64,000 nucleotides of DNA from Patescibacteria group bacterium (GCA_041662665.1 JBAZSC010000001.1:321511-385510); one strand, 5' to 3'; positions 5,394-63,511 are shown, counted from the first letter of the stretch. Notes: generated by a model not told the origin, from the letters alone. Translations and numbers: made by a program.

Positions 5394-5541
5394 ATTATTT
5401 TTTTATTTTTTTTGGCATTTAAAATTAAAATCATAAATTTAGTATACATTATTTTATAAAAATCGTAAACAAATATTTAGTAACAAAGGAAAAAAATCAA
5501 AATAAAAACGGGCTTAATTCAGCCCGTAATATTTTATCAAA

Positions 5542-8553: not shown

Positions 8554-8710
8554 TTGTTTTAATTAATTTATTATTTAAAAATTTAATAAAAAATAAAAAT
8601 TTTTATTCAAATATTTACAAATATATTTTGCAATCAAACTTAAAATTGACTGAATATATTATATCATAAAAAATGAAACATCATATCAACAGCTTTAACA
8701 ATTCGTATTT

Positions 8711-37302: not shown

Positions 37303-38715
37303 ATGGAAAATCAAAATCAAACATCCTATGATGCTTGGTTGAAAGAGTGTGATTTTCTAGCAAAAGTCAGAAAAGAAAACCCAAAAAAGATAGAACGACA
37401 AAACCCAATTATCGAGGATCAAAAATTACTTCAAGATTACGGAATTGAAATAATTTCTGATCTACCTTTGGGTTTTTTGCGTTTTTCGCCAGCTGATTTC
37501 ATTGTTGAAGAAATTACTCAAGATGGCAGAATTACAACTATTGATCCAGAAAATGATCCAAGCTTAGCAGATCAAGAAGGCGAGACAGTTTATGCTGATG
37601 TAGTTAAAATTGGCATTCCAACATTAGAAGCAATTGATCGTATTGCCAAAAAATTGAATGTAGGCTTAGGACAAATTGGCTATTCTGGCATGAAAGATGC
37701 CATTGCTATTACTTCTCAAAAATTTAGTTTTAGAAAAATATCCAGAGATAAAATAAAAGAATTAAAACTTCCAAATATTTATTTAAAAAATATAATTGTT
37801 AGCAAAGGCGCTTTGCAACCAGGAAATTTGATTGGTAATAGATTTAATATTTTTATCCGAACAAAAGGTTTGTACGATCCAAATTTGTTATTAGAAAAAT
37901 TAAACCATATTAAAGAAGTTGGCTTTTATAATTTTTTTGGCAGTCAACGATTTGGCGGAGCTAGGGGAATTGGCCACAAGCTTGGTATAATTTTACTTCG
38001 TGGTGATTATGAGTTAGCAGTTAAAGCATTTTTAATTGCTCAAGGCAAGAATGAAATTCCATTAATCCAAGAATTAAGAAACAAAGCCAAAGCAATTTAT
38101 GGCAATTGGAATGATATGATCAAAATTTATGAACAAATGCCATATACTTTTTCTGGCGAAATAAGAGTTTTAAAAGCTTTGACGCATGAACCAAGTGATT
38201 ATATTAATGCCTTATTAGCAATCAAAGAACAAGTCAAACTTTGGGCTTATGCTTACGGTAGCTATTTATTTAATAAAAAAATCTCACAATTAGTTCGCAA
38301 CAAAATTAATCTGCCAGCTAAATTGCCATTATTTTTGAGCAATGAAAGATCAGACAAAGATTTGTATGAAGACTTTTTAGAAAGCGATAAAACAAAAAAT
38401 TTCCGAGAATCAGCTCGTCCATTTCCATTTATCCAGTTGCGTCATTATGAAGTTCCAACATTATTATCTCCAAAAATTAATTCTTTTACTTGTACAGAAG
38501 ATGGAGTTGCCATTAATTTTGAATTACACAAAGGTGCCTATGCCACAACATTTTTATCTCATATCTTTACTTTGACAATGGGCTTGCCATTGCCAAGTTG
38601 GGTCTCACAAAAAGAAATTGATACCTTAAAAATATTAGAGCTAGGCACAATAGAAAATATCAAAAAAGTTTTTGAAGAATACTGGTCAAATGTTTTAACA
38701 AATTCTGGTAAATAA
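37303..38715 (+). CDS. truD: tRNA pseudouridine synthase D
   Basis: GYSGMKDAIAITSQKFS (GxKD motif) and FGSQRFG are typical of TruD. Confidence 0.8.
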   Translation: MENQNQTSYDAWLKECDFLAKVRKENPKKIERQNPIIEDQKLLQDYGIEIISDLPLGFLRFSPADFIVEEITQDGRITTIDPENDPSLADQEGETVYADVVKIGIPTLEAIDRIAKKLNVGLGQIGYSGMKDAIAITSQKFSFRKISRDKIKELKLPNIYLKNIIVSKGALQPGNLIGNRFNIFIRTKGLYDPNLLLEKLNHIKEVGFYNFFGSQRFGGARGIGHKLGIILLRGDYELAVKAFLIAQGKNEIPLIQELRNKAKAIYGNWNDMIKIYEQMPYTFSGEIRVLKALTHEPSDYINALLAIKEQVKLWAYAYGSYLFNKKISQLVRNKINLPAKLPLFLSNERSDKDLYEDFLESDKTKNFRESARPFPFIQLRHYEVPTLLSPKINSFTCTEDGVAINFELHKGAYATTFLSHIFTLTMGLPLPSWVSQKEIDTLKILELGTIENIKKVFEEYWSNVLTNSGK

Positions 38716-38806
38716 TTCTGCGTTTTCTGCGTTCGATTCTGCGTATTTCTGCGGAATCGTTTTTAACGCAGACTAACGCAGAATCTAACGCAGAACGTGC
38801 AGAAAA
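38716..38806. repeat. Word-built inverted repeat (ttctgcg / cgcagaa words)
   Basis: ttctgcgttttctgcgttcgattctgcgtatttctgcgg faces aacgcagactaacgcagaatctaacgcagaacgtgcagaa. Confidence 0.75.
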
Positions 38807-38829
38807 TAATCTACACGTTTTTTTTGTGC

Positions 38830-38860
38830 AAAAAAAAGACCGACTCGGACGAGTCAGTCT
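38830..38860 (-). terminator. Intrinsic terminator of high-GC cassette C
   Basis: The minus strand reads agactgactcgtccgagtcggtct followed by T8. Confidence 0.7.
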
Positions 38861-38905
38861 AGGTAGGGTGCGAAAGGAACGGGTGTTGTGAGTGTGTGGG
38901 TAGGT

Positions 38906-39493
38906 CTATCGGGTGGGGGGGCTCAGCGTGTAGGTGTAGCGACCGGGGGCGAAGCTGATGTGCAGCTCTTCCTGGGTCACCATGCCGTCGCGGGGGACTG
39001 GCACGTTCACGGTGTCGAGCCTGTACAGCTCTTCACCCTTCTCGTTGACGTTGGCCCAGACGTTGCAGTAGGGTGTGGTCTGGTTGAAGAGGTTGACGAC
39101 ACGATCGGGCAGCTTGAGATCTTTTCCTGTCTGAGTGAGCACCAGCTGCAGGAACCTCTTCCTGCCACGCTTATCCTCACGCCAGAACCAGAAGGCATCC
39201 GTCACCTTGTAGCCAGCCATGCCGAGCTCGCTCAGGAGTGCGCTCATGTCGACCATCTGCCGATTGGCAGCGATGTTCGTGCCGGTGTCATCCATGCCGT
39301 CTCTCTTGACACCGAACTCGATTCCGAGATCCTTTGCCTCCTTGCGGTGCTTCGCAGCCACCGCCTTTGCATCGTACTCCTTCTGAGGGAGCAGAGCCTC
39401 GATCCAGCCGCCGATTCCGGCGACCTTCACGAGGATGATGAGGGGCATGAGCCCCAGACCTTCGAACTGATCAACCAGGACCGTGCGGCTCAT
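38906..39493 (-). CDS. High-GC (about 60%) SD-led ORF of unknown function, 195 aa (module C)
   Basis: Start reassigned to MSRTVLVDQFEG, preceded by acaGGAGGtttccg. Codons mostly end in G or C. There is one hydrophobic segment (LGLMPLIILVKVAGIGGWIEALL). I recognise no family. The plus-strand ORF 38888..39583 is its antisense shadow. Confidence 0.65.
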   Translation of the reverse strand: MSRTVLVDQFEGLGLMPLIILVKVAGIGGWIEALLPQKEYDAKAVAAKHRKEAKDLGIEFGVKRDGMDDTGTNIAANRQMVDMSALLSELGMAGYKVTDAFWFWREDKRGRKRFLQLVLTQTGKDLKLPDRVVNLFNQTTPYCNVWANVNEKGEELYRLDTVNVPVPRDGMVTQEELHISFAPGRYTYTLSPPTR

Positions 39494-39542
39494 CGGAAAC
39501 CTCCTGTCAGTGGTGGCACTCACCCCGATTCCAGGGCTTTTC

Positions 39543-39571
39543 ATCATATCACAGCACCCTATTTTTGTCAA
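39543..39571 (-). promoter_or_regulatory. Sigma70-type promoter of module C
   Basis: On the minus strand, TTGACA (39571-39566), a 17-nt spacer, then TATGAT (39548-39543). Confidence 0.6.
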
Positions 39572-39657
39572 TGGCATTTTTGAAGTGGGAAGTGGGATCT
39601 TGGGATATGAGAAATGGGAACCTTAAATAAGCCAAAAAAAGATATTTGTGCGATTAG

Positions 39658-39672
39658 TGGCCTTAAGGCATT
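39658..39672 (+). repeat. Copy 3 of the 15-mer palindromic core TGGCCTTAAGGCATT
   Basis: Identical 15-mer to copy 4, with flanks atatttgtgcgattag / cgtgcgatttg. It lies just 3' of the MYG1 terminator. Confidence 0.75.
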
Positions 39673-39730
39673 CGTGCGATTTGTAAGCATAAAAAAAGAG
39701 GTAAAAACCTCTATCTAAAAGAACGCTTAA

Positions 39731-40708
39731 TTATGCTTTGAGTGCAACCTTCGCTAGTGCAATCGCTCCTTCTCTTGATTTCGCTACTACAATATGCCCA
39801 TCTTTATGGCAGTTATCAGCATCAGCAACTCCAGTCAATTTGACCAAAGTTGAGCCGCGCTGTCCATGCCATGCTTTTGGCAAGTTTTTACGATAGCGTT
39901 TGCCAGTCCCATATCCAGCATTCACAACATGTACCATCCAGCCATTGTTAACGCGATGAACAACAAATTTGATCAGCGGTAATTCTTTAACAACTGATGA
40001 CCAAGGCATCGGATCATTCAATACAACAATTCTTGGATCATCAGATTCAGGTACCGCTTTCAACACCAGCTCTTCAGCTCTGATGACGCCTGCAGCTCTT
40101 GCAATTGTCCTTTTTAGATAGACCTTGGCAAATTCCAAAGCTTCAAAAAAAGCAACATCTGGATCTCGATCATTTTCATCCCAAGCTGGATTATAATTAT
40201 CAATCACATTTGAAATAGTGTGTGCAGAGATATCTTCCACTTTTCCTTGAAAAATCTTGTAGCCATTGTCCTGTGCATCAATTGGAATCACCAGCCACTT
40301 TTCTACAAGCTTAGCTACTTTTTCATTTCCATCACAAATTGCTACTCCAAACTTTTTCCAGACCAATCCAAAAGAAGCATAGGGCAGATGTGCGGTCACT
40401 TTCTTGCCAAACAATTTCCACATCAGCAAGTTGATAATATGCTTGAAAATCCAAGCAAACCGCAAGACTTTGAAAAAGCCTTCACGTATTCCAGCTCCGC
40501 CAAACATGTGATGATCAAAGTCGCCAGTATTTGGATCATTTTCGCCGCCGACATCAACTCGAAAATCAGCCTTTTCGTAAACTTCCTGATCGCGAGTCCG
40601 AAAAATTTGAATGATAAAGAGCAATGCCAATGCTGCACACGCAAACACATCATCAGCATGAAACCTTCCATTATGCGTTGCAACAACCTTATGTTCCTTC
40701 TCAATCAT
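39731..40708 (-). CDS. MYG1/UPF0160 family metal-dependent hydrolase; SD-led cassette gene
   Basis: The N-terminus VATHNGRFHADDVFACAAL is the MYG1 signature. The SD is GAGGAGGaagaggaa. The terminator agaggtttttacctct plus T-run follows. Confidence 0.8.
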   Translation of the reverse strand: MIEKEHKVVATHNGRFHADDVFACAALALLFIIQIFRTRDQEVYEKADFRVDVGGENDPNTGDFDHHMFGGAGIREGFFKVLRFAWIFKHIINLLMWKLFGKKVTAHLPYASFGLVWKKFGVAICDGNEKVAKLVEKWLVIPIDAQDNGYKIFQGKVEDISAHTISNVIDNYNPAWDENDRDPDVAFFEALEFAKVYLKRTIARAAGVIRAEELVLKAVPESDDPRIVVLNDPMPWSSVVKELPLIKFVVHRVNNGWMVHVVNAGYGTGKRYRKNLPKAWHGQRGSTLVKLTGVADADNCHKDGHIVVAKSREGAIALAKVALKA

Positions 40709-40742
40709 TTCCTCTTCCTCCTCTTCGTTTTCGCAGCTAATT

Positions 40743-40771
40743 AAAATATCAGAAAATAACTAAAATGTCAA
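40743..40771 (-). promoter_or_regulatory. Sigma70-type promoter of the MYG1 cassette
   Basis: On the minus strand, TTGACA (40771-40766), a 17-nt spacer, then TATTTT (40748-40743). Confidence 0.55.
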
Positions 40772-40800
40772 CTGAATGTAAAATATATTTGTGTTATTTG

Positions 40801-40815
40801 TGGCCTTAAGGCATT
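40801..40815 (+). repeat. Copy 4 of the 15-mer palindromic core TGGCCTTAAGGCATT
   Basis: tggccttaaggcatt with flanks atatttgtgttatttg / tgtgcatattcg. It lies just 3' of the TPR gene stop/terminator. Confidence 0.75.
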
Positions 40816-40847
40816 TGTGCATATTCGAGAGTATAAAAAATCAGCCG

Positions 40848-42353
40848 TTATTTCGACTGATCAACTCGGTTAAAGGACATTCCAAATGCGACTCTGTAGG
40901 CCGCGTACGCAGGTTCAAGGTACTCTCTTTCATCTGAACAAATATGTTGTTCACAACAAGTCAAGAAATAGTCAGCCTGTTTTTTGTCATGTCTCTTCGG
41001 CATTGTGAAAAAGTAGACAAAAGGCAGATACATTTCTGGCCTGCGTTTGTCATCATCAACCAGCATTTCCAAAGCTTGCAAAGTCCTCAGCATTTCAGAT
41101 AGCTTTGATCTGCCAATTCTTGATTTCTCAAGATAGATGAACAGAAGATTAACAGAAATTGCAGCAATGATTTCAGTATCATCAAAGGCCTTGATTGCTT
41201 CTTTGCATGTTGTTGCAAGAACATCAAGCCTTGTTGCTTTCATTTCTGGATCCGGAAGATGAGCGATTGTATGCCGATGTTCTTTCAGATGTCCAAGAAA
41301 TGCGCGTGTTGCCTGAATTGACTTTTCATCATCAACTCCAGCTTCGCGGCATTTTACCAAGTACTCGATTGCTTTCGCAAAAGTGCTTGGCTTTCTGGCA
41401 TAGAAAAAGACAAAAGCTGCATAGATTCTTGGTGGAACTCTGACACTCAAACCTTCAGCTTTTGCAAGCAGTTCATGCATTTCTTTTGATTTATCATCTC
41501 TGAATTTCTTTGACCATTCCAGATAGACATACAACAATCCTTCTATGGCTTGAATCAAGAAAGTAGGCGAATCTTGTAGATAGCTGATCGCTTCCAAAAA
41601 GAGCATCTCAGCTTCAGCAAGCTTTAGTCTTTGTTCATCAAGATCTTCAATCTCTTTGACAGCTTTGCGTTGATGTTCAGCATAAGCAGAACAAGCAGTT
41701 CCAACAAAGCTCAAGGCCAGAGATCTATTTTCTTTGAACTGAACAAAGAAAATCAATGCATCAGCAAACTTGTCCTTGGCGATCATCACTTCAATGTAAT
41801 CTTTCACCAGATAACCAACTTGTTTATTTTCACCATAATACTTCAGTAAGTGGGCAAGTTGAACTTGCGCTTTTTCAAAATCATCTTGAGCAAGATAGAT
41901 TCTTGCCATCATGCAATTTGCCTGACAAGAGAAGGGATTGATTCTCAAGGCGTCTTCAGCGTATTGCCTTGCATCATCAAATCTCTTTTGCTCGAGGCAA
42001 GTCTTAGCCTGAATCAGATAGAAATCAGTATCTTCATCAGAATCGCTAAACAATGCAGTGAGTTCGCTGATTTTTGCATTTTCGCGATCAGGAAAGAATC
42101 TCATCAAATAGCTTAGCTTTGCCATCGCCTGATCTTTTTGACCAGATTTATGCAAAGCATGAATCTGAAGATTCATTGCCAAACCATTGCAAGGATCTTC
42201 TCCAAGAGCTTTTTCGCAATGAACTAATACACCAGCAAAATCATTCTGTCCTAAACAAGTCGCCGCTTTTGCACAAGAATCAGGTTCAAGTGTTGATGAA
42301 TCACCAAGCAATTCAAGTAAATCACCAAGATTAAGATCTTCTGGCTCAGCCAT
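40848..42353 (-). CDS. TPR-repeat protein; SD-led cassette gene
   Basis: 501 aa with repeated A..Y...AL..(D/N)P helical-pair motifs (FDDARQYAEDALRINP, FEKAQVQLAHLLKYY). The SD is GAGGAGGaagaga. Confidence 0.7.
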   Translation of the reverse strand: MAEPEDLNLGDLLELLGDSSTLEPDSCAKAATCLGQNDFAGVLVHCEKALGEDPCNGLAMNLQIHALHKSGQKDQAMAKLSYLMRFFPDRENAKISELTALFSDSDEDTDFYLIQAKTCLEQKRFDDARQYAEDALRINPFSCQANCMMARIYLAQDDFEKAQVQLAHLLKYYGENKQVGYLVKDYIEVMIAKDKFADALIFFVQFKENRSLALSFVGTACSAYAEHQRKAVKEIEDLDEQRLKLAEAEMLFLEAISYLQDSPTFLIQAIEGLLYVYLEWSKKFRDDKSKEMHELLAKAEGLSVRVPPRIYAAFVFFYARKPSTFAKAIEYLVKCREAGVDDEKSIQATRAFLGHLKEHRHTIAHLPDPEMKATRLDVLATTCKEAIKAFDDTEIIAAISVNLLFIYLEKSRIGRSKLSEMLRTLQALEMLVDDDKRRPEMYLPFVYFFTMPKRHDKKQADYFLTCCEQHICSDEREYLEPAYAAYRVAFGMSFNRVDQSK

Positions 42354-42583
42354 TCTCTTCCTCCTCGTTTTTGCCTTTGACTTTCTGCTTTCTTTCTGTT
42401 ATTCTGAATCTGGAAGTTATCAATTTTATCCGCGTGCAATCCGATAAATCCGCGTTATTCGAAAAGCTGATTTTAACGGATTACATGCGGATAAAACTGA
42501 AAAATTAGTTATTTTGTTAAGAGCAAGAAAAAAAGAGCACTAAACATTATATAATATAATTATTAATTTGTCAATTTAAACGT

Positions 42584-46226: not shown

Positions 46227-46336
46227 TTCGAAAATTACAAATGTCAAATTCCAAATTCCAAACAAATTACAAATCACAATATACAAAATCTTTGTAATTT
46301 GTTTGGAATTTGTTATTTGTAATTTTATTTAATCTC

Positions 46337-47089
46337 ATGTCTCTTTTATCACAGGAGCTAATTAAATTAGGTCTATCTGACAAAGAAGCAAAAGTATATT
46401 TGGCTTCATTGGAATTAGGATATGACACAGTTTTAAATATTGCAAAAAAAGCAGGGATCAATCGACCAACTGCTTATTTTATTTTAGAGTCATTACAAAA
46501 AAAGGGGATTGTTACAACTTTTGAAAAAGATAAAAAAACTTATTTTGCATCCGAATCTCCTGACAAGTTAGTTACATTATTAAATCAGCAAAAAGAAGAT
46601 CTTAATCAAAAGCAAAAAGAATTTGAAAATATTTTGCCAGAATTTAAAGCTTTATTTAATTTGCCAACAGAAAAACCAACTGTCAGATTCTTTGAAGGCA
46701 GGCAAGGATTGTTATCAATGCGCGAGGATTTTTTGAAAACTACAGACAAAAAAATTGAGGCAATGTATTGTCTAGATGATCTTAACAAAGTTTTTACTCC
46801 TGAAGAAAATGCAAAGTTTACAGACAGAAGAGCTGAAAAAAATATTGAAACTTTCGCTATATATACTTCAATCAATGGTCCAACAAAAAGACCAAAGGCT
46901 CCAGGTGAAAGACGTTTTATTCCTTTCGATAAATTTCCTGTGACTGCTGATATTACAATATATAATAATAAAGTTGCCATTGCATCTTTGAAAGGAAAGC
47001 TATCAGGAGTAATTATTGAAAATAAAGAAATTGCTAATACAGTACGTTCACTATTTTATTTAGGTTGGGAATCAGCCAAAAAAGTATAA
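46337..47089 (+). CDS. TrmB-family transcriptional regulator
   Basis: The start is moved to MSLLSQELIKLGLSDKEAKVYLASLELGYDTVLNIAKKAGINRPTAYFILESLQKKGIV, which is a TrmB-type winged HTH. Confidence 0.75.
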   Translation: MSLLSQELIKLGLSDKEAKVYLASLELGYDTVLNIAKKAGINRPTAYFILESLQKKGIVTTFEKDKKTYFASESPDKLVTLLNQQKEDLNQKQKEFENILPEFKALFNLPTEKPTVRFFEGRQGLLSMREDFLKTTDKKIEAMYCLDDLNKVFTPEENAKFTDRRAEKNIETFAIYTSINGPTKRPKAPGERRFIPFDKFPVTADITIYNNKVAIASLKGKLSGVIIENKEIANTVRSLFYLGWESAKKV

Positions 47090-47098
47090 GAACATGCT

Positions 47099-47963
47099 AG
47101 AAACTCGGTTTTCTATTAATCAAAAAAATAAACTTATTGTAAGTAAAAACAAGGTATAAAAAATAATCATTTAATTAAGATAAAACCGAGTTTCGCGTGA
47201 ATTCAAAAATAGAAATGCGCAAAACAAATTTTACAAATGAATCATTTTATCATATCTACAATCGCGGTACTGAAAAACGCGATATTTTTTTGCAAAATTA
47301 TGATTATTTTCAATTTATTAAATTATTAAGAAAATATAAAAATAATTTAGTTGAAATAATCTGCTATTGCTTAATGCCGAATCATTTTCATTTATTGCTA
47401 AAACAATTAAATAATAATGGAATCAGCAAGTTCATGCATTTATTAACAATAAGTTATGCAAAATATTTTAACAAAAAATATGATCATAGCGGAGTTTTAT
47501 TTCAGGGAAAATTTAAAGATGTCCAGATTTTGAGCTATATTCAATTGCTAAATATTTCAAAATACATCCATATAAATCCAGCTAAAGATCAGAATATTTT
47601 ATTAAAACAAAAAATAATTACATTAGAAAATTATCCTTGGTCTTCTTATAAAGATTATATAAATATCAGAAACGGAACATTATGTAATAAAACCGAAATA
47701 ATAAATTGTGTAGAAGGTAATTTTGTAAAAGAGTATAAAGAATTAATAAAGGCACATTTGATGAATTATAATGAGAGAAATTTGGATAAATTAATACTTG
47801 AATGAGTGAAATAGAAACTCGGTTTTCTATTAATCAAAAAAATAAACTTAATGTAAGTAAGAACAAGGTATGAAAAATAATCATTTAATTAAGATAAAAC
47901 CGAGTTTCATCATGTTGTAAATAATTGACACACGAAACTCGGTTTCTTCGGAAACCGAGTTTC
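47099..47963 (+). mobile_element. IS200/IS605-like (RAYT-type) Y1 transposase element with hairpin-forming flanks
   Basis: The transposase ORF is flanked by two 96-bp direct repeats (47099-47194 and 47813-47908). Each repeat is bounded by gaaactcggtttt ... aaaaccgagtttc. A third minimal hairpin gaaactcggtttcttcggaaaccgagtttc lies at 47934-47963. Confidence 0.75.
47197..47805 (+). CDS. IS200-like / REP-associated tyrosine transposase (HUH Y1 family)
   Basis: FYHIYNRGTEKRDIF, the HUH motif in CYCLMPNHFHLLLKQ, and YIHINPAK. The track start is GTG. An ATG 18 nt downstream is an alternative start. Confidence 0.8.
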   Translation: MNSKIEMRKTNFTNESFYHIYNRGTEKRDIFLQNYDYFQFIKLLRKYKNNLVEIICYCLMPNHFHLLLKQLNNNGISKFMHLLTISYAKYFNKKYDHSGVLFQGKFKDVQILSYIQLLNISKYIHINPAKDQNILLKQKIITLENYPWSSYKDYINIRNGTLCNKTEIINCVEGNFVKEYKELIKAHLMNYNERNLDKLILE

Positions 47964-47984
47964 AAAGAATGTGTTAATTTTCGC

Positions 47985-48245
47985 GCAAAATAAAACCGGG
48001 CAAAAGCTCGGTTAAGGGAACAAAGGGCAAAAAATCGATTCATCCAATTGGCGTTCATTTTATTGTCTTCTCCGTCAGGAGTTGGGGGAGTCGCTTGGCA
48101 CTTATAACTGTTAACTTTCAACTGTTAACTAGTTTTCAGTCGCCCATGACGTCCTCCTCTACCAATGGGGTAGAGGTTAGCATCGCCATAGTTTCAGGCG
48201 CGCCTTCCTCGACCCAGGGAACCAAAGATCAAGATGATTTATAAC
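47985..48245 (-). ncRNA. Candidate noncoding transcript with a GC-rich 5' domain
   Basis: It is bounded by a consensus promoter (48251-48278, minus strand) and a hairpin plus T-run (minus strand aaccgagcttttgcccggttttatttt, near 47990-48015). The GC-rich segment at 48135-48225 contains the hairpin cctctacc/ggtagagg and the palindrome aggcgcgcct. Confidence 0.3.
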
Positions 48246-48250
48246 AATGT

Positions 48251-48278
48251 ATTATAGCAAGCCTGTAGTATTTGTCAA
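48251..48278 (-). promoter_or_regulatory. Consensus sigma70-type promoter (minus strand)
   Basis: On the minus strand, TTGACA (48278-48273), a 16-nt spacer, then TATAAT (48256-48251). Confidence 0.6.
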
Positions 48279-48481
48279 TAGATTTGGACAATTTAGTGTA
48301 ATTAGTAATGAGTAACTAGTAATTAGGCGAAAAAACTTGCAAAATTATTAATACCTGATATTATCAAAATTGTCAGTAATAATAGACAAAATAAGCTAAA
48401 ATAGCTTGTTTTTATTTTGCCTTGTTTAAAGCAAAATATGTCAAAATATCGAAAAAGATAATAAATATTTGTAAAAACCTC

Positions 48482-48510
48482 TTGACATGATAAAAATAGA
48501 GTAATATAAT
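48482..48510 (+). promoter_or_regulatory. Perfect consensus sigma70 promoter (plus strand)
   Basis: TTGACA (48482-48487), a 17-nt spacer, then TATAAT (48505-48510). Confidence 0.65.
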
Positions 48511-48574
48511 GCAGAGTTCTAAGCTCAAACCAAGCTCATTCCAAAATGTCAATCAGAGCAAACTAGTTTAACAG

Positions 48575-48654
48575 TCTAACCAGTTTAGGTTAACCAGTCT
48601 AACTAGTCTAACCAGTTTAGGTTAACCAGTCTAACTAGTCTAACCAGTTTAACC
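48575..48654. repeat. 32-bp tandem repeat, about 2.5 copies
   Basis: The unit tctaaccagtttaggttaaccagtctaactag starts at 48575 and 48607, with a partial copy at 48639. There are no unique spacers. Confidence 0.85.
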
Positions 48655-48663
48655 GCATTTCCG

Positions 48664-48751
48664 TCTATTTATTAGAGGAGGTGAAATGGTCTCCAGGGAA
48701 TAAATCTTTTCTTTAGTCCTTGCTGAGCCACTTCGGCCTCTAATAAATGGG
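48664..48751 (+). ncRNA. Hairpin-closed structured element containing an SD-led 5-codon mini-ORF
   Basis: A 15-bp closing stem: tctatttattagagg (48664-48678) pairs with cctctaataaatggg (48737-48751). Inside is aGGAGGtgaaATGgtctccagggaaTAA (MVSRE), with an inner stem caggga/tccttg and a cttcgg loop. Confidence 0.35.
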
Positions 48752-48974
48752 CAGAATGAAATTTCCAATTACCAATTTCCAATTCACAATAAATTTTCAA
48801 TAAGCAATTTTCAATGACGACAGTGACGATTTGAAAATTAGTAATTGGTCATTTATTGTAAATTGATAATTGGAAATTAGAGATATGTAATCAGTAACTA
48901 GTAATCAAAAAATTGATTCCTAAATACTGATTGCGTGCGAGAGGGGACCAAGAGTCCTCGAGGAGGAAAGGACA

Positions 48975-49196
48975 ATGGCGAATTGCATCATCTGCCACCA
49001 GCGCGTTGCGAGCGGCGGTGACCGGCATGCCAAGGGGCAGTGTCCGGCGAAGAAGAAGGAGCGCGAGCAGAAGGAGAACGAGGTGCAGGCCGGCGATCTC
49101 GCGACCCCGGGTCGCGGAGACGTCGTGCCGCTGGCCGGCAAGACCAGCACCCAGCTCTCCAACAAGGGCAAGTCCCGGGGGTCCAAGTCGGGCTGA
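48975..49196 (+). CDS. High-GC SD-led small basic protein, 73 aa (module A)
   Basis: The SD cGAGGAGGaaaggaca precedes the ATG. Of the overlapping ORFs here, this is the frame I picked because its codons mostly end in G or C. The protein is MANCIICHQRV...GQCPAKKKEREQKE... I recognise no family. Confidence 0.55.
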   Translation: MANCIICHQRVASGGDRHAKGQCPAKKKEREQKENEVQAGDLATPGRGDVVPLAGKTSTQLSNKGKSRGSKSG

Positions 49197-49392
49197 GCCT
49201 GACACGACCCACAAGACGAGCCCAAGTACTAGGTTCTAGTGTCGTTCCGTTTCATCCCCAAGTTCCCCAGATTTTTCTTCAGTTTTCCGCCAGTACCTTC
49301 CATGCCAGACTCTTGTCTGGCCCCACCTGAAATAATAATGATTACATTGTTATTTGAGGCGGTACATTAAAAAATGATCAATTTACAATTTT

Positions 49393-49547
49393 TCACCCTT
49401 CGGGTGACCACCCGCAGGGTGGCAATAAATTACCAATTACCAATTTTCAAAGCGACGATGGTCGTAATTGGAAATTGTTCATTGAAAATTTATTGGAAAT
49501 TGCAAAATTGGTAATTGCCACCCTACGGGTGGTCACCCGAAGGGTGA
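49393..49547. repeat. About 155-nt composite inverted repeat with GC-rich self-complementary ends
   Basis: tcacccttcgggtgaccacccgcagggtggcaa ... ttgccaccctacgggtggtcacccgaagggtga. The AT-rich ccaatt/aattgg words sit in the middle. Confidence 0.8.
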
Positions 49548-49639
49548 GAAATTAGGGTTTGCGGTAAAGCAAAGATCTTAAAAAAGATTTTCGCCTTGCT
49601 GCAAAGTGCAGCCTATAGCAGAGAAGGAAAAGTAAACGA

Positions 49640-49816
49640 TGAACGATCAGATGGACGCGGCGGACCGGCGGATCATGGACGAAACGACTGTTCGGCTCGA
49701 AGGCCGGCAGGTCAAGTCCAGCCAGGGAGCTGGTTCCAGGTCGGCAGAAGTGCCAATCTGGAAGATCCGCGCGAGCCGTCGTGCTCTCCCCGCCATGGCA
49801 GTCTACGGCGACTAGA
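49640..49816 (+). CDS. Possible high-GC small ORF, 58 aa (module B)
   Basis: Below the ORF-track length cut-off. ATG at 49640 with only a weak SD (agaaGGAaaagtaaacg). The protein is MNDQMDAADRRIMDETTVRLEGRQVKSS..., and the frame has mostly G/C-ending codons. Confidence 0.35.
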
Positions 49817-50061
49817 CCTACCCCCAACTCTTCAGTTTTCCGCTCGTACCCTCCTGTGGTCACTTTTCGTGGCCACCTCAGCTTAAGCAACGATGTGATC
49901 GTTGAGTAAGTAGAGAACGTTACAAAATTATCAATTTCCAATTTACAATTCTCAATAAATTTTCAATGAACGATTTCCAATGGCGATACTCGGTCTGAAA
50001 ATTGAAAATTGGTAATTTATTGGAAATTGTAAAATTGATAATTGGAAATTAAATCTAGCTT

Positions 50062-50106
50062 TCAGCAGTTTGCCTCAAATTATTTTGAGACACACTATTG
50101 ATAGCT
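50062..50106 (+). promoter_or_regulatory. Conserved ~45-nt leader element, copy 1
   Basis: tcagcagtttgcctcaaattattttgagacacactattgatagc. It is about 80% identical to copy 2 and contains the hairpin ctcaaa/tttgag. Confidence 0.45.
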
Positions 50107-50148
50107 ACATCTCGTCCTTTCACCAACTGAAGCACACAAGGAGGAAAA

Positions 50149-50814
50149 ATGCCAAGTAAAGACAAGCCAAGACATGTTTTTGTTAATTGCTTGTTTCATG
50201 AAAACGAAAGGCTTACAGTCACCAACAAGGATGGTGAATTAAAAGCCTGGGGATTTGATGGCGATGTAATAAGTATCATCTCGGAATCCATGTTGCTTAG
50301 CATATCGGGTTCCAATCTGCAACTTGATAAAAGAAAAAAAGCATTGTGTAGATATTTAAAGCTTTTCTTCAACGAAGGAAAACAACCTCCAGCAATTTGT
50401 TTTGAGCATGCAAGGAAGTTGGAATCTGTGTTGTTGCAAATGCGACGATTTCTTCCTAAGGAAAAAGCTAATGTCCAGATTTCTATGATTCCATATCAAG
50501 AAAGTCTGGATAAATGGGCAATCTGGGTAGCCGAAGTAAAAAGAAATAGAGATATTGAAGCTACGAGATTGTGGCGTGAGATTATTTCTAAGCATTTTCC
50601 AGATGATGAAAGTATTGCAGACGAGCAAGACGCAAAAGTGCTTGCTGATCGTCTGTCTTCTGAATGTGTTAGAGAATTATTTGATAAGATACGCAATACT
50701 GCACTTTACCGCAAATCAGAAAAATCTGAATTGCTGAAACAGATCGGATTGTACTTAGCAGAAAAAGCGTATGAAGAAGCAAAAATAAAACATGAAATAG
50801 ATTCTTGGAAGTAG
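50149..50814 (+). CDS. Hypothetical protein, 221 aa; SD-led cassette gene
   Basis: The SD cAAGGAGGaaaa precedes the ATG. GC content is intermediate. I recognise no family. Confidence 0.6.
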   Translation: MPSKDKPRHVFVNCLFHENERLTVTNKDGELKAWGFDGDVISIISESMLLSISGSNLQLDKRKKALCRYLKLFFNEGKQPPAICFEHARKLESVLLQMRRFLPKEKANVQISMIPYQESLDKWAIWVAEVKRNRDIEATRLWREIISKHFPDDESIADEQDAKVLADRLSSECVRELFDKIRNTALYRKSEKSELLKQIGLYLAEKAYEEAKIKHEIDSWK

Positions 50815-50943
50815 ATGACTGCATTTTAACCTCTGTATGTTTCCAGTTTTTATCAAGTTTTTAATGAATAATTTGCAATAGTTTGAAAATTAATTCATTG
50901 AAAATTTAATAAAAATTAATAATTAGAAATTAAAAATTCGCTG

Positions 50944-50987
50944 TCAGCCTTTTGCCTCAAATCATTTGGAGACAAAAGATTGATAGC
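50944..50987 (+). promoter_or_regulatory. Conserved ~45-nt leader element, copy 2
   Basis: tcagccttttgcctcaaatcatttggagacaaaagattgatagc. It lies upstream of high-GC module D. Confidence 0.45.
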
Positions 50988-51247
50988 CTGTCCCGTACTA
51001 TGTTTCTGGTGAATATAAAAAAACATTGATTACTTTAGGAATTTAATCAATGCAACAAACAATATTTATTAGATACTTAGTATGGGATTAATGCTAGAAC
51101 ACTGACAACTTGGAAGGTAAAAATAATAGTCAAAAGTGTTAACTGTTAAGTGTTAATGGTTAACTGTTTGAAGTTGGCACATCGCGGCCAGGCAAGGCCG
51201 CGTTCGCGCGCGAGTAGATTCCGCTTGTGTCAGAGGAGGAGAGCGAC

Positions 51248-53515
51248 ATGTCGACCAACTGCGAGCCGAAGAGCGTCAGCACCGTCAACACCGTCACCGA
51301 GGAGAAGGAGGTGAAGCCCGCCCGGGTGCGCAAGCCCCGGGTGAAGGTCGAGAAGGAAGAGCAGGAGCAGTTCAACGAGGATGGCACGAAGAAGGATGTG
51401 AAGGACGAGGCCCCGCCCAAGAAGCGGAGCCACCACAAGAAGGTCGAGAAGTCCGTCGCCGTCGAGACCGAGACCGCCGAGCCCGCCCCGCCCGCCGAGT
51501 CCACCCCCAAGGTGGCGTCGGTGGCGGTGGTCGAGCAGCCGGTCCAGGTCGCCCCGCCCGCCGCGCCCCAGCCCGAGCCCCCCAAGAAGGGCGAGGTCGA
51601 GGACGTCAACGAGGACGAGGACAAGGACGGCGAGAGCGAGGGTGAGGACGAGGAGCAGGAGACCAGCGAGGAGGCGCTGGAGGACGCCCAGATCAACGAC
51701 CTGGAGTTCCAGAAGAAGATGAGCGAGCTCCCCCGGCACGAGCAGATCCGGCGGCAGAAGGCCCGCAACCGGGTCATCACGAGCAACCGGCGCAGCCGCA
51801 AGACGGCGGCGCAGGACAAGAACCGCGCGGAGCACAACGAGATGCGCGAGGCCGGGCGGCCGGAGGTGAAGATCACCATCCCGGACCCCCTGATCTGCAG
51901 CGCCCACGCCGGTGAAGTCCTGAAGCTCGAGGACGCCTACTCGCTGAACAGCAGCGTGGTCTACGAGCTGACCCAGGTGAGCCAGGAAGGCAAGACCGAG
52001 GCGCAGACCAAGATCCTGAAGTTCGTGGTGAGCAAGCTCGCTCCGCTGTTCCGGTTCAACTGCGAGACCATCCCGGCCTACTGCAAGACGGTGGTGGACG
52101 TGCTGGCGAAGAACATCGCGGCCGTCCAGCCCCTCATCGCGCACGAGAAGAAGGCGCGGTGGGAGAGCCGGATCGTCATGCCCTACGCGGCCGCGCTCCG
52201 GCACTTCGCCGAGAGCAAGGCCGCGGTCGAGGGCAAGCAGCAGAACGTCAAGGACCGGCAGAACAAGGAGGCGTGGGCCTGGTTCGACGAGAACATCGGC
52301 AAGTTTCACGCCGAGCTGGTCGGGCTGCGCAGCGTCGAGGAGATCGTCGGCAAGATCGACATCCTGAACGGCCTGAACGACAAGTGTCTCGACACCTTGC
52401 GCCACCACTTCCTCGAGACCCTGCCCGTGATGCGCTACAGCGAGCCCGGCAAGATGCTGGGTCAGCTGCTGCGCGAGCGGGGCAAGAAGTACGAGCAGGT
52501 GCAGATCGAGGAGCAGCGGGCCCGCAAGGCCGAGGCCGACGAGAAGCGCAGGAAGGAGGAAGAGAAGGCTCTGGCCGGGCTGGGCGAGCTCGAAGGGCTG
52601 TTCGGTGGCGAGGAGAAGCAGGGCGAGGAGCAGGACGAGGAGCCCAGCGAGCGTGACGAGAACGAGAAGCGGATCGGCAAGTGGCTGGAGAAGCTTGTCG
52701 GCGGGAAGATGCACAGCGCGGCCGGGCTGATGACGCCCAGCGCCCTGCGCGAGATCTTCGCCGCGGATCCGGGCGCCGAGGTCTACTCGGCCTGCCCGTT
52801 CAGCCAGCAGGCGCCGGGGACCCAGTACTCCACCTACGTGAACCGGAAGGGCGACAACGAGCCCCTCTTCGCGACGGTGACGGTCCCGACCCTCGTGGTC
52901 GAGACCGACGACGAGGGTCAACCGATCTGCGACGGCAAGGGGCGGCCCAAGCCGTGGATCAACCCCCGTACGAGCAAGACGCAGTACGAGGGGCAGATCG
53001 CGGTGCTGACGAAGCACGAGGCCCGCTGGGCCGCGTCGATCCGCATCCGCCAGATGGCCGAGGAGCAGGTGAACAACGGCCGGTACGACTCGCTGGAGGA
53101 GGCCATCAACGGCATCCATCAGGAAGTCAACCAGGCCAAGACCAACCTCTGGGCGGCCAAGAAGGAGTTCAACGAGGCCAAGGTCTCCGGCGACCAGAGC
53201 CGCATCGACGCGGCCGAGGAGCGCCTGAACCAGGCCAAGGAGGTCATGAACCATCTGAGCGACGACCGTCGTCCGTGGTACCAGGGGATGCTCGAGGGAA
53301 GCCTCGGTGTCCTCAAGTACTACGATCTCAAGAACACGGTCGAGATGCTCAACAAGCCCCGTGAAGAGCGGCCCGCCAAGCGCAACACGCGCGGCGGCGG
53401 GACCCACGGCAACTACGAGCAGGAGCAGTCCCAGGGCGCGAGCGCGGAAGAGCAGGAGGCCTTCTTCCGCAGCCAGAACAACCAGAGCTTCGCCAACAAG
53501 GCCCGCCAGGTCTGA
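51248..53515 (+). CDS. High-GC, GC3-saturated SD-led ORF of unknown function, 755 aa (module D)
   Basis: ATG at 51248 preceded by caGAGGAGGAGagcgac (the track start at 51227 is GTG). By my manual read, about 30-odd of ~755 codons end in A or T. The protein is K/E/Q/N-rich with an acidic/basic low-complexity N-terminal ~200 aa. I recognise no domain. Confidence 0.75.
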   Translation: MSTNCEPKSVSTVNTVTEEKEVKPARVRKPRVKVEKEEQEQFNEDGTKKDVKDEAPPKKRSHHKKVEKSVAVETETAEPAPPAESTPKVASVAVVEQPVQVAPPAAPQPEPPKKGEVEDVNEDEDKDGESEGEDEEQETSEEALEDAQINDLEFQKKMSELPRHEQIRRQKARNRVITSNRRSRKTAAQDKNRAEHNEMREAGRPEVKITIPDPLICSAHAGEVLKLEDAYSLNSSVVYELTQVSQEGKTEAQTKILKFVVSKLAPLFRFNCETIPAYCKTVVDVLAKNIAAVQPLIAHEKKARWESRIVMPYAAALRHFAESKAAVEGKQQNVKDRQNKEAWAWFDENIGKFHAELVGLRSVEEIVGKIDILNGLNDKCLDTLRHHFLETLPVMRYSEPGKMLGQLLRERGKKYEQVQIEEQRARKAEADEKRRKEEEKALAGLGELEGLFGGEEKQGEEQDEEPSERDENEKRIGKWLEKLVGGKMHSAAGLMTPSALREIFAADPGAEVYSACPFSQQAPGTQYSTYVNRKGDNEPLFATVTVPTLVVETDDEGQPICDGKGRPKPWINPRTSKTQYEGQIAVLTKHEARWAASIRIRQMAEEQVNNGRYDSLEEAINGIHQEVNQAKTNLWAAKKEFNEAKVSGDQSRIDAAEERLNQAKEVMNHLSDDRRPWYQGMLEGSLGVLKYYDLKNTVEMLNKPREERPAKRNTRGGGTHGNYEQEQSQGASAEEQEAFFRSQNNQSFANKARQV

Positions 53516-53621
53516 ACCTTCCAACAACCCGCCCCCGGGACAAGTCCAAGCTTTAAGCTTGTAACCTTGCTCCCTGGCGCGCGGCACACTACCATTCCAG
53601 TTCTTTCATTCCCGTTCCTTC

Positions 53622-53650
53622 AGAAGACCCTTACCGGTCTTCTTTTTTTT
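53622..53650 (+). terminator. Intrinsic terminator of module D
   Basis: agaagaccc tta ccggtcttct followed by T8. Confidence 0.7.
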
Positions 53651-53701
53651 CACTAAGTTATCAGTTAACAGTTGAAAGTTATAAGTTACGTCAATTTACT
53701 C

Positions 53702-53730
53702 TTGCCATTTTTCAAGATTCCTGCTATCAT
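53702..53730 (+). promoter_or_regulatory. Sigma70-type promoter of rpmG
   Basis: TTGCCA (53702-53707), a 17-nt spacer, then TATCAT (53725-53730). Confidence 0.5.
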
Positions 53731-53773
53731 TGCAGTATAGCTTATAACTTACAACTTTTAACTTATAACTTCG

Positions 53774-53929
53774 ATGCCACAAGATAATCTCATTAAATTA
53801 GAATGCACTGTTTGCAAGAGCATTAATTATTATTCTCGCAAGAACAAAAAAGTTCTTAAAAATAAAATTGAGATCAAAAAATTCTGCAAGAAATGCAAGA
53901 AACATACTCTACACAAAGAGACTAAATAA
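53774..53929 (+). CDS. rpmG: 50S ribosomal protein L33
   Basis: Below the ORF-track cut-off. It translates to MPQDNLIKLECTVCKSINYYSRKNKKVLKNKIEIKKFCKKCKKHTLHKETK, a typical Zn-ribbon L33. Confidence 0.9.
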   Translation: MPQDNLIKLECTVCKSINYYSRKNKKVLKNKIEIKKFCKKCKKHTLHKETK

Positions 53930-54043
53930 CAAATTCCAAATTCCAAACAAATCCCAAATTACAAAAAACAAACCAATAAAACAATTTTGTAGTTTGTGAT
54001 TTGTAATTTGTTTGTGTTTTTGGGATTTGGGATTTTAACACAA

Positions 54044-54114
54044 GGGGATGTAGTTAAATGGTATAACTGCGGTCTCCAAAACCGCTGTCGAGGGTTCGAT
54101 TCCTTCCATCCCCG
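54044..54114 (+). tRNA. tRNA-Trp(CCA)
   Basis: Acceptor GGGGATG/CATCCCC, anticodon loop CTCCAAA, and T-loop TTCGATT. The usual rpmG-tRNA-Trp neighbourhood is present. Confidence 0.9.
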
Positions 54115-56783: not shown

Positions 56784-56954
56784 TTTTTTTACGAGAATTA
56801 TGAATAATGAATCAGGAATCATGACTTGAATAATGAGTAATGAATTTAGAATTCGATATTCTTAATTCATGCTTCAAATCATGATTCATAATTCGTTATT
56901 CATAATTCTTTTTTGATTGACTTTATTTTAATCTCAGAATAAACTATACCAGTT

Positions 56955-59106: not shown

Positions 59107-60573
59107 ATGAATCAAAATCCTACAGAAAATTTAAAAAAATATTTAGATTTAGCGAGAAAATCAAAAACTTTTGAATTTCTTAATATCTTAATATCAGAAT
59201 ATCCGAAGGCTAGTATCTATTTAGTCGGTGGTTTTGTGCGTGACCAAATTTTAGGTTTAGAATCCAAAGATTTAGATTTTGTTGTTACAAAAATTAAGGC
59301 AGATGATCTGAAAAAATTTTTAGGAAAATATGGTTCTGTAGAATTAGTCGGTGCTTCGTTTGGTGTTTTTAAATTTGTGCCAAAAGAATCAGAATTTATG
59401 AATCAGAAAATGGAAGCTTTTGATATTGCTCTTCCTCGAACAGAAAAATCTTTAGGAACTGGCGCATATCGAGATTTTGATGTCCAATCAGATCCAGAAT
59501 TGCCAATAGATGTTGATTTATCAAGACGCGATTTGACAATCAATGCCATTGCTTATGATATCAAAAATGATTCTATAGTTGATCCATATTTTGGTCAAAA
59601 AGATTTAGCTAATAAAATAATCAAAGCAGTTGGCGAGCCAAAACAAAGATTCCAAGAAGATTATTCCAGAATTTTAAGGGCAATAAGATTTGCTCTAAAA
59701 TTTAATTTTCAAATTGAAGATAATACTTGGCAAGCAATTAAAGATGACGCTCCAAAAATTTTAGATGCAGTTCCATTTGAAACAATTTCTAAAGAATTAT
59801 TGAAATCTTTAGACGCAAATCCAGTTAGATTTTTAGATCTTTATGATCAAAGCAAATTATTAAATATAATTTTGCCAGAAGTAGAAGAATGCAAAGGTGT
59901 TATTCAGCCAAAAGAATTTCATGAAGAAGGCGATGTTTATGAACATACAAAATTAGCGTTAACTTTTATTCCCAAAAATTCTACTGTCAGATTTAAACTA
60001 GCAACTTTATTGCATGACATTGGCAAACCAAGCACAACTAAAACTCCAGAAAAAGATGGTGTTGAAAGAGTGCGCTCTGACGAACATGCCGAAGTCGGTG
60101 CAGAAATTACTGGCTATATATGCAATCGCTTAAAATTGCCAAATAATTTATCAAACGAAATAGTTTGGCTGGTAAAATACCACATGTTTTTTGTTTCAGG
60201 AAAAGTTGAAGATATGCGTCCAAACACAATCAAAAAATATTTTATTGATAATCCAAAATTAGGTGATGAACTTTTGGATTTATATTATGTTGATACAAAG
60301 GCATCATTTGGTCCAACTCAAGAAAAAAATTTAGCAAGAATTACTGAAGTTCGCGATTATATTAATAATATGCGTGAACAATTTAGAAAATCAGAAATAA
60401 AAACTTTCCGACATGTTATCGATGGACAAGATATTATGAAAGAATTTAATTTAAAACCTGGAAAAGAAATTGGAGAATATTTGGAAAAAGCAGATAAATT
60501 TATTTTGGAATTTGTTACCAAAAATGGGGAAGAGCCTAGTAAAGAAGAAGTCCTAAAAAGTCTAAAATCCTAA
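59107..60573 (+). CDS. cca: CCA-adding enzyme / tRNA nucleotidyltransferase with HD domain
   Basis: YLVGGFVRDQILGLESKDLDF, RRDLTINAIAY and LLHDIGKP. Confidence 0.8.
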   Translation: MNQNPTENLKKYLDLARKSKTFEFLNILISEYPKASIYLVGGFVRDQILGLESKDLDFVVTKIKADDLKKFLGKYGSVELVGASFGVFKFVPKESEFMNQKMEAFDIALPRTEKSLGTGAYRDFDVQSDPELPIDVDLSRRDLTINAIAYDIKNDSIVDPYFGQKDLANKIIKAVGEPKQRFQEDYSRILRAIRFALKFNFQIEDNTWQAIKDDAPKILDAVPFETISKELLKSLDANPVRFLDLYDQSKLLNIILPEVEECKGVIQPKEFHEEGDVYEHTKLALTFIPKNSTVRFKLATLLHDIGKPSTTKTPEKDGVERVRSDEHAEVGAEITGYICNRLKLPNNLSNEIVWLVKYHMFFVSGKVEDMRPNTIKKYFIDNPKLGDELLDLYYVDTKASFGPTQEKNLARITEVRDYINNMREQFRKSEIKTFRHVIDGQDIMKEFNLKPGKEIGEYLEKADKFILEFVTKNGEEPSKEEVLKSLKS

Positions 60574-60702
60574 ATTCTAAATCCTAAACAAATTCAAATG
60601 ACTAAAATCAAAATGATCAAAAGTCGATTTGAAATTTAGTATTTGAATTTTTAATTTGTTTAGAGTTTAGGATTTAGTGCTTTGAGTTTTAATTAAAAAA
60701 AT

Positions 60703-62111: not shown

Positions 62112-62323
62112 ATGATTAATTTCATCTTTTTTTATTTCTTGTCTCAATCCGTCAAATTTGGTAAAATAACTATATAAAAATTCAATAAACAAATTCCAAA
62201 TCCTAAACAATTTACAAATTACAAAACACAAAATATCTTTGTAATTTGATTAAAAAAATTGTATTCCAATTTTTTTAATTGTGGTTTGTTTGGAATTTGA
62301 GATTTGTAATTTAATTTAACTTT

Positions 62324-63409: not shown

Positions 63410-63511
63410 TGAAGTATGAATAATGAATTATGAATTATGACTAGAATAATGAATCTAGAATAGAGAATCATTCTTTATTCATTATTCTTAATTCATAATT
63501 CTTGATTTAAC

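Follow-up and report, generated by a model that had tools for sequence, protein, structure and literature searches.

We analyzed a 64,000-nucleotide (nt) stretch of DNA, hereafter the window, from a Patescibacteria group bacterium (GCA_041662665.1, JBAZSC010000001.1:321511-385510). Four GC-rich genes of the window, named here A, B, C and D, end in a common element, hereafter the tail, in which a box and a GC stem-loop lie at the end of the 3′ untranslated region (3′UTR). Judged from its sequence, the tail is an undescribed conserved end-of-message signal. The window is chromosomal and belongs to a small AT-rich bacterium; its overall GC content is about 31%, and host genes have a GC content at third codon positions (GC3) of 0.19. 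The ordinary genes found within it include the ATP synthase operon, EF-Ts, pyrH, RF-1, tRNA-Thr/Tyr/Thr and, further on, rpmG and tRNA-Trp.

GC-rich modules and their tails

Two-state GC segmentation delimits five GC-rich islands in the window. One of them is the tRNA cluster; the islands of A to D and the parts of the corresponding modules are the following (L011, L014 and L020 are related genomes, described below):

48933-49329, plus strand: island and module A, 62% GC, with the open reading frame (ORF) of a 73-amino-acid (aa) CxxC protein at 48975-49196 and a 3′UTR; orthologues in L011 and L014
49598-49612, plus strand: 5′ stem-loop of module B, GCTGCA-aag-TGCAGC, inside a 5′UTR that is 89% conserved
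49639-49815, plus strand: 58-aa ORF of module B; protein identity 59-65% in L011 (depending on the alignment) and 64% in L020
49653-49882, plus strand: island B
51176-53639, plus strand: island C
51176-53650, plus strand: module C, with a 5′ stem-loop at 51183-51202, a 755-aa ORF at 51248-53515 and a 136-nt 3′UTR
38838-39537, minus strand: island D
38829-39537, minus strand: module D, GC-rich between terminator and approximate transcription start, with a 5′ stem-loop at 39522-39537 and an ORF at 38906-39493

GC content is periodic along the codon positions (0.62/0.50/0.88 in A, 0.64/0.51/0.73 in B, 0.65/0.38/0.96 in C and 0.60/0.39/0.80 in D; GC3 of B is 0.73 to 0.75, depending on stop codon inclusion), and a strong Shine-Dalgarno sequence precedes each ORF. 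The periodicity, the conservation of the ORFs and the lack of Rfam matches rule out that the modules are structured non-coding RNAs instead of genes. The ORF that spans the full length of C on the reverse strand results from its high GC3. None of the four proteins matches a Pfam family. The C protein has one weak match in PHROGs (E = 1.2e-4), to a family of unknown function, word-index searches with the C and B proteins returned only the query, and protein D gives a confident structure model for which no known fold neighbour was found. A phage origin was rejected, as no protein or DNA of the phage collection matches the modules. A chimeric assembly was likewise ruled out: the locus is present with 99.9-100% identity in three independent other assemblies, and the same islands are found in four related genomes.

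The boxes and stem-loops that make up the tails, together with the second hairpins of A and B, are located as follows:

49277-49301, plus strand: box A, CTTCAGTTTTCCGCCAGTACCTTCC
49304-49321, plus strand: hairpin A1, GCCAGAC-tctt-GTCTGGC, a 7-bp GC stem in the minimum-energy fold, with no U tract after it
49326-49359, plus strand: hairpin A2, an AT-rich second stem-loop
49830-49854, plus strand: box B, CTTCAGTTTTCCGCTCGTACCCTCC
49856-49876, plus strand: hairpin B1, GTGGTCAC-ttttc-GTGGCCAC, an 8-bp stem including one U·G pair in the minimum-energy fold, with no U tract after it
49877-49915, plus strand: hairpin B2, a second stem-loop
53595-53621, plus strand: box C, TTCCAGTTCTTTCATTCCCGTTCCTTC, a variant of the box, in a 3′UTR that is 93% identical to that of L011
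53622-53650, plus strand: terminator of C, an 8-bp stem followed by T8
38861-38885, minus strand: box D, CACCCGTTCCTTTCGCACCCTACCT
38829-38860, minus strand: terminator of D, a 10-bp stem followed by T8

Boxes A and B, both 25 nt long, are identical at 22 positions and lie in direct orientation, 553 nt apart. When the box pattern was searched with up to three mismatches, only these two sites were found in the window, and 100 shuffles gave none (0 expected by chance). The similarity between the two tails extends for about 120-140 nt, from the box into the first part of the long AT hairpin (z = 12.5 in local alignment), so that B is flanked by direct repeats of about 140 nt. A GC stem-loop is present in the minimum-energy folds of all four tails, and those of C and D were also recovered by a terminator scan. 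The stem is followed by T8 at C and D and by no U run at A and B, where the next bases are CCCACCTGA and CTCAGC, respectively.

Box and hairpin thus occur at the 3′UTR end of all four GC-rich genes, and the box preceding each of the C and D terminators is pyrimidine-rich and akin to those of A and B. B and D also have TAGACCTACCC...ACAC in common directly after the stop codon (z = 5.1), and the tails of C and D are weakly similar (z = 3.0). A looser scan for the box core plus a hairpin returned A, B and D together with two further sites, versus 1.1 expected by chance. When only the three B tails were used to build a covariance model, a search of 160 kb with it retrieved the three A tails (E = 2e-7, 0.0015 and 0.01) and, weakly, the D tail of L011 (E about 0.1), and nothing else that was credible. 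At the gathering threshold, Rfam yields only tRNAs in the window and no family that matches the tails, and permissive Rfam scans of 47900-54100 and 38600-39800 yield only spurious miRNA-like hairpin matches. An exact-pattern scan of public genomes gave two matches, both by chance and inside coding DNA. The same type of scan gave none in viral contigs and none in metagenome contigs, and a protein-seeded metagenome scan also gave none; the metagenome collection scanned evidently lacks this lineage. Full-text literature searches found no description of the tail element.

Much of this agrees with the first-pass annotation of the window, which had described A and B as GC-rich islands sharing a 22/25 box, with each hairpin followed by a second one. 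Segmentation and folding confirm both points. The ORFs of 73 and 58 aa that it had proposed are real genes, with GC3 of 0.88 and 0.73-0.75 and orthologues in relatives. Its coordinates for the box and hairpin are correct in A, but those in B were all 1 nt too high, hence a spacing of 553 and not 554. The common 3′ region is real but longer than had been claimed, and so is the composite hairpin between the modules, which measures about 167 nt (49387-49553) and not 155. The claim that the hairpins of A and B covary has to be reworded: when aligned by sequence the two stems are two columns out of register, so this is not clean column-wise covariation, but compensatory changes are seen between orthologues.

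Conservation of the tails in related genomes

Relatives were taken from the contigs of matches to D (exhaustive search, 34 cluster representatives) and of TrmB orthologues. Four related genomes are reported, and the sources are the following:

L011: JGI 3300027914
L014: GCA_964574655.1
L020: GCA_028699085.1
L012 and L013: short contigs

Housekeeping proteins are mostly 85-92% identical across L011, L014 and L020 (TruD in L014 is lower, 71%), and housekeeping DNA of L011 is 82-84% identical to that of the window. GC-rich islands are found at matching positions in every related genome: D lies between TruD and EF-Ts, and A, B and C come after TrmB, behind a divergent pair of consensus promoters and a leader, both conserved. 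The orthologues have a GC3 of 0.63-0.93, versus 0.20-0.29 for the EF-Ts genes of the same genomes. Between the window and L011, housekeeping genes have a synonymous divergence (dS) of 0.8-1.1, which means that about 50% of synonymous sites differ, and a ratio of nonsynonymous to synonymous divergence (dN/dS) of 0.04-0.13.

Against this background, 3′UTR identity between the window and L011 amounts to 93% for D, 93% for C, 86% for B and 77% for A. The ORFs are 70-81% identical in DNA where they can be aligned, and 38-62% (A, B and D) or 31% (C) in amino acids, so the end of the message is better conserved than the ORF. The contrast is sharpest in D, the last 55 nt of which are identical in both genomes while its ORF DNA is 72-76% identical, depending on the alignment. 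In L011 the A tail reads CTTCAGT-(19 nt)-CAGTACCTTTC followed by GCCACA-ttttc-TGTGGC, the B tail CTTCAGTTTTCCGCTCGCACCTTCC followed by GTGGTCAC-acttc-GTGGCCAT, and the D tail CTTCAGTTCTGATTCGCACCCTACCT followed by a terminator identical to that of the window. The 3′UTR of C is almost unchanged in L011 and L020; in L014 both of its ends and the terminator are kept, and the middle is rearranged. Pairing is kept as well. One G-C pair of the A1 stem becomes C-G in both L011 and L014; among three genomes, B1 is closed by G-C, G-U or A-U. At the other end of the modules, the 5′ stem-loops of C and D show compensatory changes, and that of B is conserved. As the tails end four GC-rich genes and recur in four related genomes, they would represent a real end-of-message signal and no chance repeat. 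The first-pass annotation had proposed a search for further copies, and the tails of C and D and the orthologous tails of A to D are the copies obtained. Of the outcomes that it had named as refuting its idea, neither an absence of copies nor a lack of conservation in relatives was observed.

Several features bear on the strand in which the tail acts. All four tails are sense-oriented, including that of D, on the minus strand. Their stems hold U·G pairs, at which the opposite strand would have A·C mismatches. The pooled 3′UTRs contain 40% C and 13% G, a composition to which the sequence switches at the stop codon, coming from ORFs in which G is at or above C. Taken together with the kept pairing, these signs point to a function in the sense RNA. 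They favor one half of the earlier suggestion that the motif is either a 3′UTR RNA element or the attachment site of a modular family; the other half finds no support, as no integrase or recombinase is encoded in the window and breakpoints are not consistently at the box.

The ORFs placed between these conserved ends are hypervariable. Between the window and L011, dN/dS is 0.46 for A, 0.25 for B, about 1.2 for C and 0.43 for D. L011 and L020 were compared over the D locus (L011 9700-10900) and the B-C region (L011 400-3420). Their housekeeping proteins are 91-100% identical, but protein identity falls to 52% for B, 42% for C and 35% for D (A is absent in L020 and could not be compared), and in C, L011 shares 69% identity with the less related L014. 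At the D locus, identity is 95-100% until about 20 nt past the transcription start, about 50% through 5′UTR, ORF and 3′UTR, and recovers after the terminator; C is a mosaic between the two genomes. With its sharp, transcript-shaped boundaries, this pattern suggests that alleles of the GC-rich genes are replaced or that they diverge locally to an extreme degree. The box marks no fixed junction: in B and D it falls within the variable part, in C within the conserved one.

Modules are also gained and lost, as had been predicted for the interval between boxes A and B: L014 has no B, L020 has no A, and an AT-rich 221-aa gene is present in the window only. This last gene is bracketed by a 60-nt repeat (AGCTNTCAGC..TTTGCCTCAAA..TTGAGAC..ATTGATAGC; 50046-50105 and 50928-50987), which occurs as a single copy before C in L011, L014 and L020, and may mark the insertion of the gene or be another conserved element. 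High GC is maintained throughout. GC3 across four full-length genomes is 0.91-0.96 for C and 0.74-0.86 for D, with 0.63 and 0.88 in the short contigs L012 and L013. According to a rough two-state decay estimate (dS about 0.8, equilibrium GC3 about 0.2), a GC3 of 0.96 is expected to drop to roughly 0.4-0.5. The values observed are above this expectation, from which we infer that selection or a biased process holds these segments GC-rich.

Promoters, leader and neighbouring repeats

The features that surround the modules are listed below:

48482-48510, plus strand: perfect consensus promoter TTGACA-17-TATAAT, upstream of the leader and of the A-B-(221 aa)-C array
39543-39571, minus strand: promoter of D, TTGACA-17-TATGAT with a TG extension
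49387-49553: composite hairpin with GC-rich outer arms, similar to repetitive extragenic palindromic (REP) sequences, around an AT-rich inner hairpin
49920-50050: long AT-rich hairpin after B, of a family found in many intergenic regions of the window
46231-46340, 48761-48884, 50860-50940, 53916-54035, 56795-56910, 60556-60651, 62176-62312 and 63397-63503: further long AT-rich hairpins
47098-47194 and 47812-47908: repeats flanking the RAYT gene

The D promoter is kept in 6 of 6 D loci (the −10 hexamer is TATGCT in L013), and its spacer is near-identical in four of them: the window, L011, L014 and L020. Downstream of the array promoter lies a leader hairpin of about 90 nt (48663-48752). Four genomes share it with about 95% identity, much more than expected at neutral sites. 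It folds with a minimum free energy of −40.7 kcal/mol (z = −4.9), has AGGAGG and AUG inside the stem, and has no match in Rfam; it may be an undescribed regulatory leader of the A-B-C array. Between promoter and leader hairpin, a tandem repeat (48570-48655, units like AACCAGTCTAACTAGTCTAACCAGTTTAGGTT) varies in its number of copies between L001 and the window, assemblies that are otherwise identical. A second perfect promoter, on the minus strand at 48278-48251, points into a small GC-rich stretch (48136-48278) that contains a conserved mini-ORF besides a strong Shine-Dalgarno sequence; the encoded peptide is MGD* in the window, and MGDGD* in L011, in L014 and, judged from its near-identical sequence, in L020.

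The outer arms of the composite hairpin (49387-49426 and 49514-49553) consist of paired REP-like hairpins, small and GC-rich (CACCC-ttcg-GGGTG and CCACCC-gca-GGGTGG). The window has no further copies, and in L011 and L014 they are missing after A; in L011, clusters of similar GC mini-hairpins (14230-14500) adjoin a Y1 transposase. The long AT-rich hairpins have arms of 25-55 nt with an internal periodicity of 7-8 nt. They lie between ordinary genes and GC-rich modules alike, and are probably genome-wide terminators or processing sites.

Upstream of the array are the genes of a TrmB-like regulator and of RAYT, an IS200-like Y1 transposase (47197-47805) placed between two direct repeats of 97 nt, which share 97% identity and are each a hairpin. 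The element is missing from the corresponding site in L011, L014 and L020. Membership of the tails in a REP/RAYT system was rejected, as the RAYT-flanking repeats are unrelated to them and RAYT is absent from the site in these relatives. The minus strand next to D encodes, at 39731-42574, a TPR protein and a MYG1/UPF0160 protein, with an intermediate GC content of about 40%, behind a perfect consensus promoter (42574-42546); L013 has the pair, L012 and L014 have it in part, and L011 and L020 have lost it. Farther away, three consecutive proteins of 913-1003 aa (2652-11605, minus strand), each with a DUF4214 domain and one also with a PKD domain, are probably large surface proteins.

Possible roles of the tail

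The tail is best filed as a 3′UTR/terminator-associated element, with a possible role in cassette exchange. The reading that we prefer, to which we give a probability of roughly 0.5, is that it is an RNA 3′-end module, which terminates transcription in C and D and protects the end of processed messages in A and B, and that the box is a common single-stranded binding platform. Past the stop codon the mRNA would enter a C-rich, G-poor and largely unpaired tract, which would end in the box (consensus YTTCAGTT ... GYWCCYTYC) and be followed directly by the GC stem-loop. In C and D, stem-loop and U8 form an ordinary intrinsic terminator. A and B appear to lie inside an operon transcribed from the 48482-48510 promoter; their stem-loop, which has no U tract and is followed by the second hairpin and then by one with arms of about 50 nt, most likely represents the protected 3′ end of a message cut from the polycistron. 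With its covarying 5′ stem-loop, GC-rich body and tail, each module looks built as a stable mRNA, and the box would serve as the landing site of one common factor, protein or RNA, that co-regulates this lineage-specific gene set. Stabilization by 3′ stem-loops is known for processed mRNAs, such as the early mRNAs of phage T7 cut by RNase III and those protected by REP stabilizers in E. coli operons. The tails resemble such stabilizers and intrinsic terminators in having a GC stem-loop with conserved pairing soon after the ORF, U8 in C and D, and long hairpins near A and B which could be RNase III sites. They depart from them in that a sequence-conserved single-stranded box, common to four unrelated genes, precedes the stem, and in the missing U tract of A and B.

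Several observations weigh against this reading. Only two to four orthologues are available per tail and most stem pairs are invariant, and for both reasons support from covariation is thin. Whole modules fold only mildly better than shuffles (z from −1.2 to −2.7). Pairing of the box with the ribosome-binding region of its own gene was rejected, being no better than that of shuffled boxes. The D tails of L012, L013 and L014 lack CTTCAGTT. In L020 the B box is conserved at only about 15 of 25 positions, having diverged about as much as its ORF, while the hairpins there are nearly identical, so the exact sequence of the box is not strictly required.

A role at the DNA level has to be considered, in which tails, AT hairpins and 5′ stem-loops are homology or recognition sites for the gain, loss and swapping of ORF cassettes, and conservation reflects that role or repeated homogenization. 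We regard such a recombination anchor as unlikely. It would account for the individual presence or absence of modules and of the 221-aa gene, for the repeats of A and B that flank B, for the low identity of B, C and D between L011 and L020 compared with C in L014, for the sharp drop and recovery of identity around D and the mosaic C, and for the mosaic box variants among paralogues, the L020 B box resembling the C box. However, no integrase, recombinase or reverse transcriptase is encoded at the array or in the 64 kb, where RAYT, absent at its site in relatives, is the sole mobile-element gene. Breakpoints do not coincide consistently with the box, the flanking host DNA (95-100% identical) could itself provide the homology arms, and neither C-over-G skew nor U·G pairs are expected of a site in duplex DNA.

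The modules can also be compared with known exchange and diversity systems. As in integrons, one strong promoter is followed by short ORFs that each end in an imperfect palindrome, as at attC, and that are individually present or absent. Unlike integron cassettes, those described here stay at fixed positions across species, and the long hairpins also lie between ordinary genes. Pfam scans of 38 window ORFs, nearly all the long ones, revealed no IntI or other integrase, and no R″/R′ core sites (RYYYAAC ... GTTRRRY) were found on reading the tails and AT hairpins at 49330-49560 and 49915-50050; membership was therefore rejected. Targets of diversity-generating retroelements also show a hypervariable coding region, followed by a conserved sequence (the initiation of mutagenic homing site) and a GC hairpin, but here variation covers whole ORFs and the sense strand has more A than T, with no A depletion. 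As the window holds no reverse transcriptase domain, no template/variable repeat pair and no near-identical repeat pair involving the modules, this class was rejected too. Phage 'morons' and other acquired islands share the deviant ORF composition and, as in D, an own promoter and terminator. The modules differ from them in lacking a prophage context and in occupying matching positions in five genomes, and a GC3 of 0.6-0.96 kept despite a dS of about 0.8 speaks against a recent import drifting to host composition.

Two further explanations also act through RNA. The last 50-70 nt, box and terminator hairpin, could be released or separately transcribed as a trans-acting small RNA, the C/U-rich box being the seed for G-rich sites such as ribosome-binding sites. 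3′UTR-derived small RNAs are known from enterobacteria, among them CpxQ, SroC and DapZ, and they typically show what is seen here, most clearly in D: a 3′ end far better conserved than the ORF, with an unpaired conserved stretch directly 5′ of the terminator stem. The box cores (ACCTTCC, ACCCTCC and CCCTACC) are moreover complementary to Shine-Dalgarno-like GGAGG and GGAAGG. Nearly one seed on four different genes would nevertheless be unusual, A and B have no U tract, there are no known targets, and pairing with the start regions of the modules themselves does not exceed that of shuffled boxes; this explanation is rather improbable, somewhat more so than the recombination anchor. That the C-rich, G-poor untranslated stretch is a Rho loading (rut) tract, with the hairpin only stopping 3′ trimming, we hold to be very doubtful. 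The composition fits over 40-135 nt from the stop codon, and A1 and B1 have no U tract, but rut sites need composition and not a common 25-nt sequence with a fixed hairpin partner, strong intrinsic terminators are already present at C and D, and no rho was found among the window ORFs scanned. It is scarcely credible, finally, that the B tail is a functionless relic of a recent local duplication of the A tail. The direct orientation of the copies, 553 nt apart, and the extension of their homology into the neighbouring hairpin would agree with it. The idea appears already contradicted, however, by conservation in L011, L014 and L020: both tails are kept in other genomes at a dS of about 0.8-1, with 3′UTR identity of up to 93%, and related tails are found at C and D, which lie on both strands at distances of 2-10 kb. 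Local duplication explains the tails only in part.

A more elaborate proposal, quite improbable and standing between the small RNA and the rut tract, is that 5′ stem-loop and 3′ box-hairpin delimit exchangeable, transcript-shaped ORF cassettes, which a dedicated process swaps between strains while keeping their GC high against the strong AT pressure of the genome. The process could copy them by way of RNA or cDNA, or be a targeted gene conversion with priming at the conserved ends. If true, Patescibacteria would possess a cassette or diversity system of a new kind, and the tail would be the signal that it recognizes.

To our knowledge, almost nothing is known about gene regulation and RNA biology in Patescibacteria (the candidate phyla radiation). 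The locus described here offers a conserved, unannotated cis-element common to a small set of genes which is odd in three respects: a GC3 of 0.75-0.96 against 0.19 for the genome, a composition kept across species with neutral sites nearly saturated, and proteins that differ by 50-65% between strains with near-identical housekeeping proteins. The tails provide a handle for finding such genes elsewhere, for mapping RNA ends, and for separating RNA stability or control from cassette exchange.

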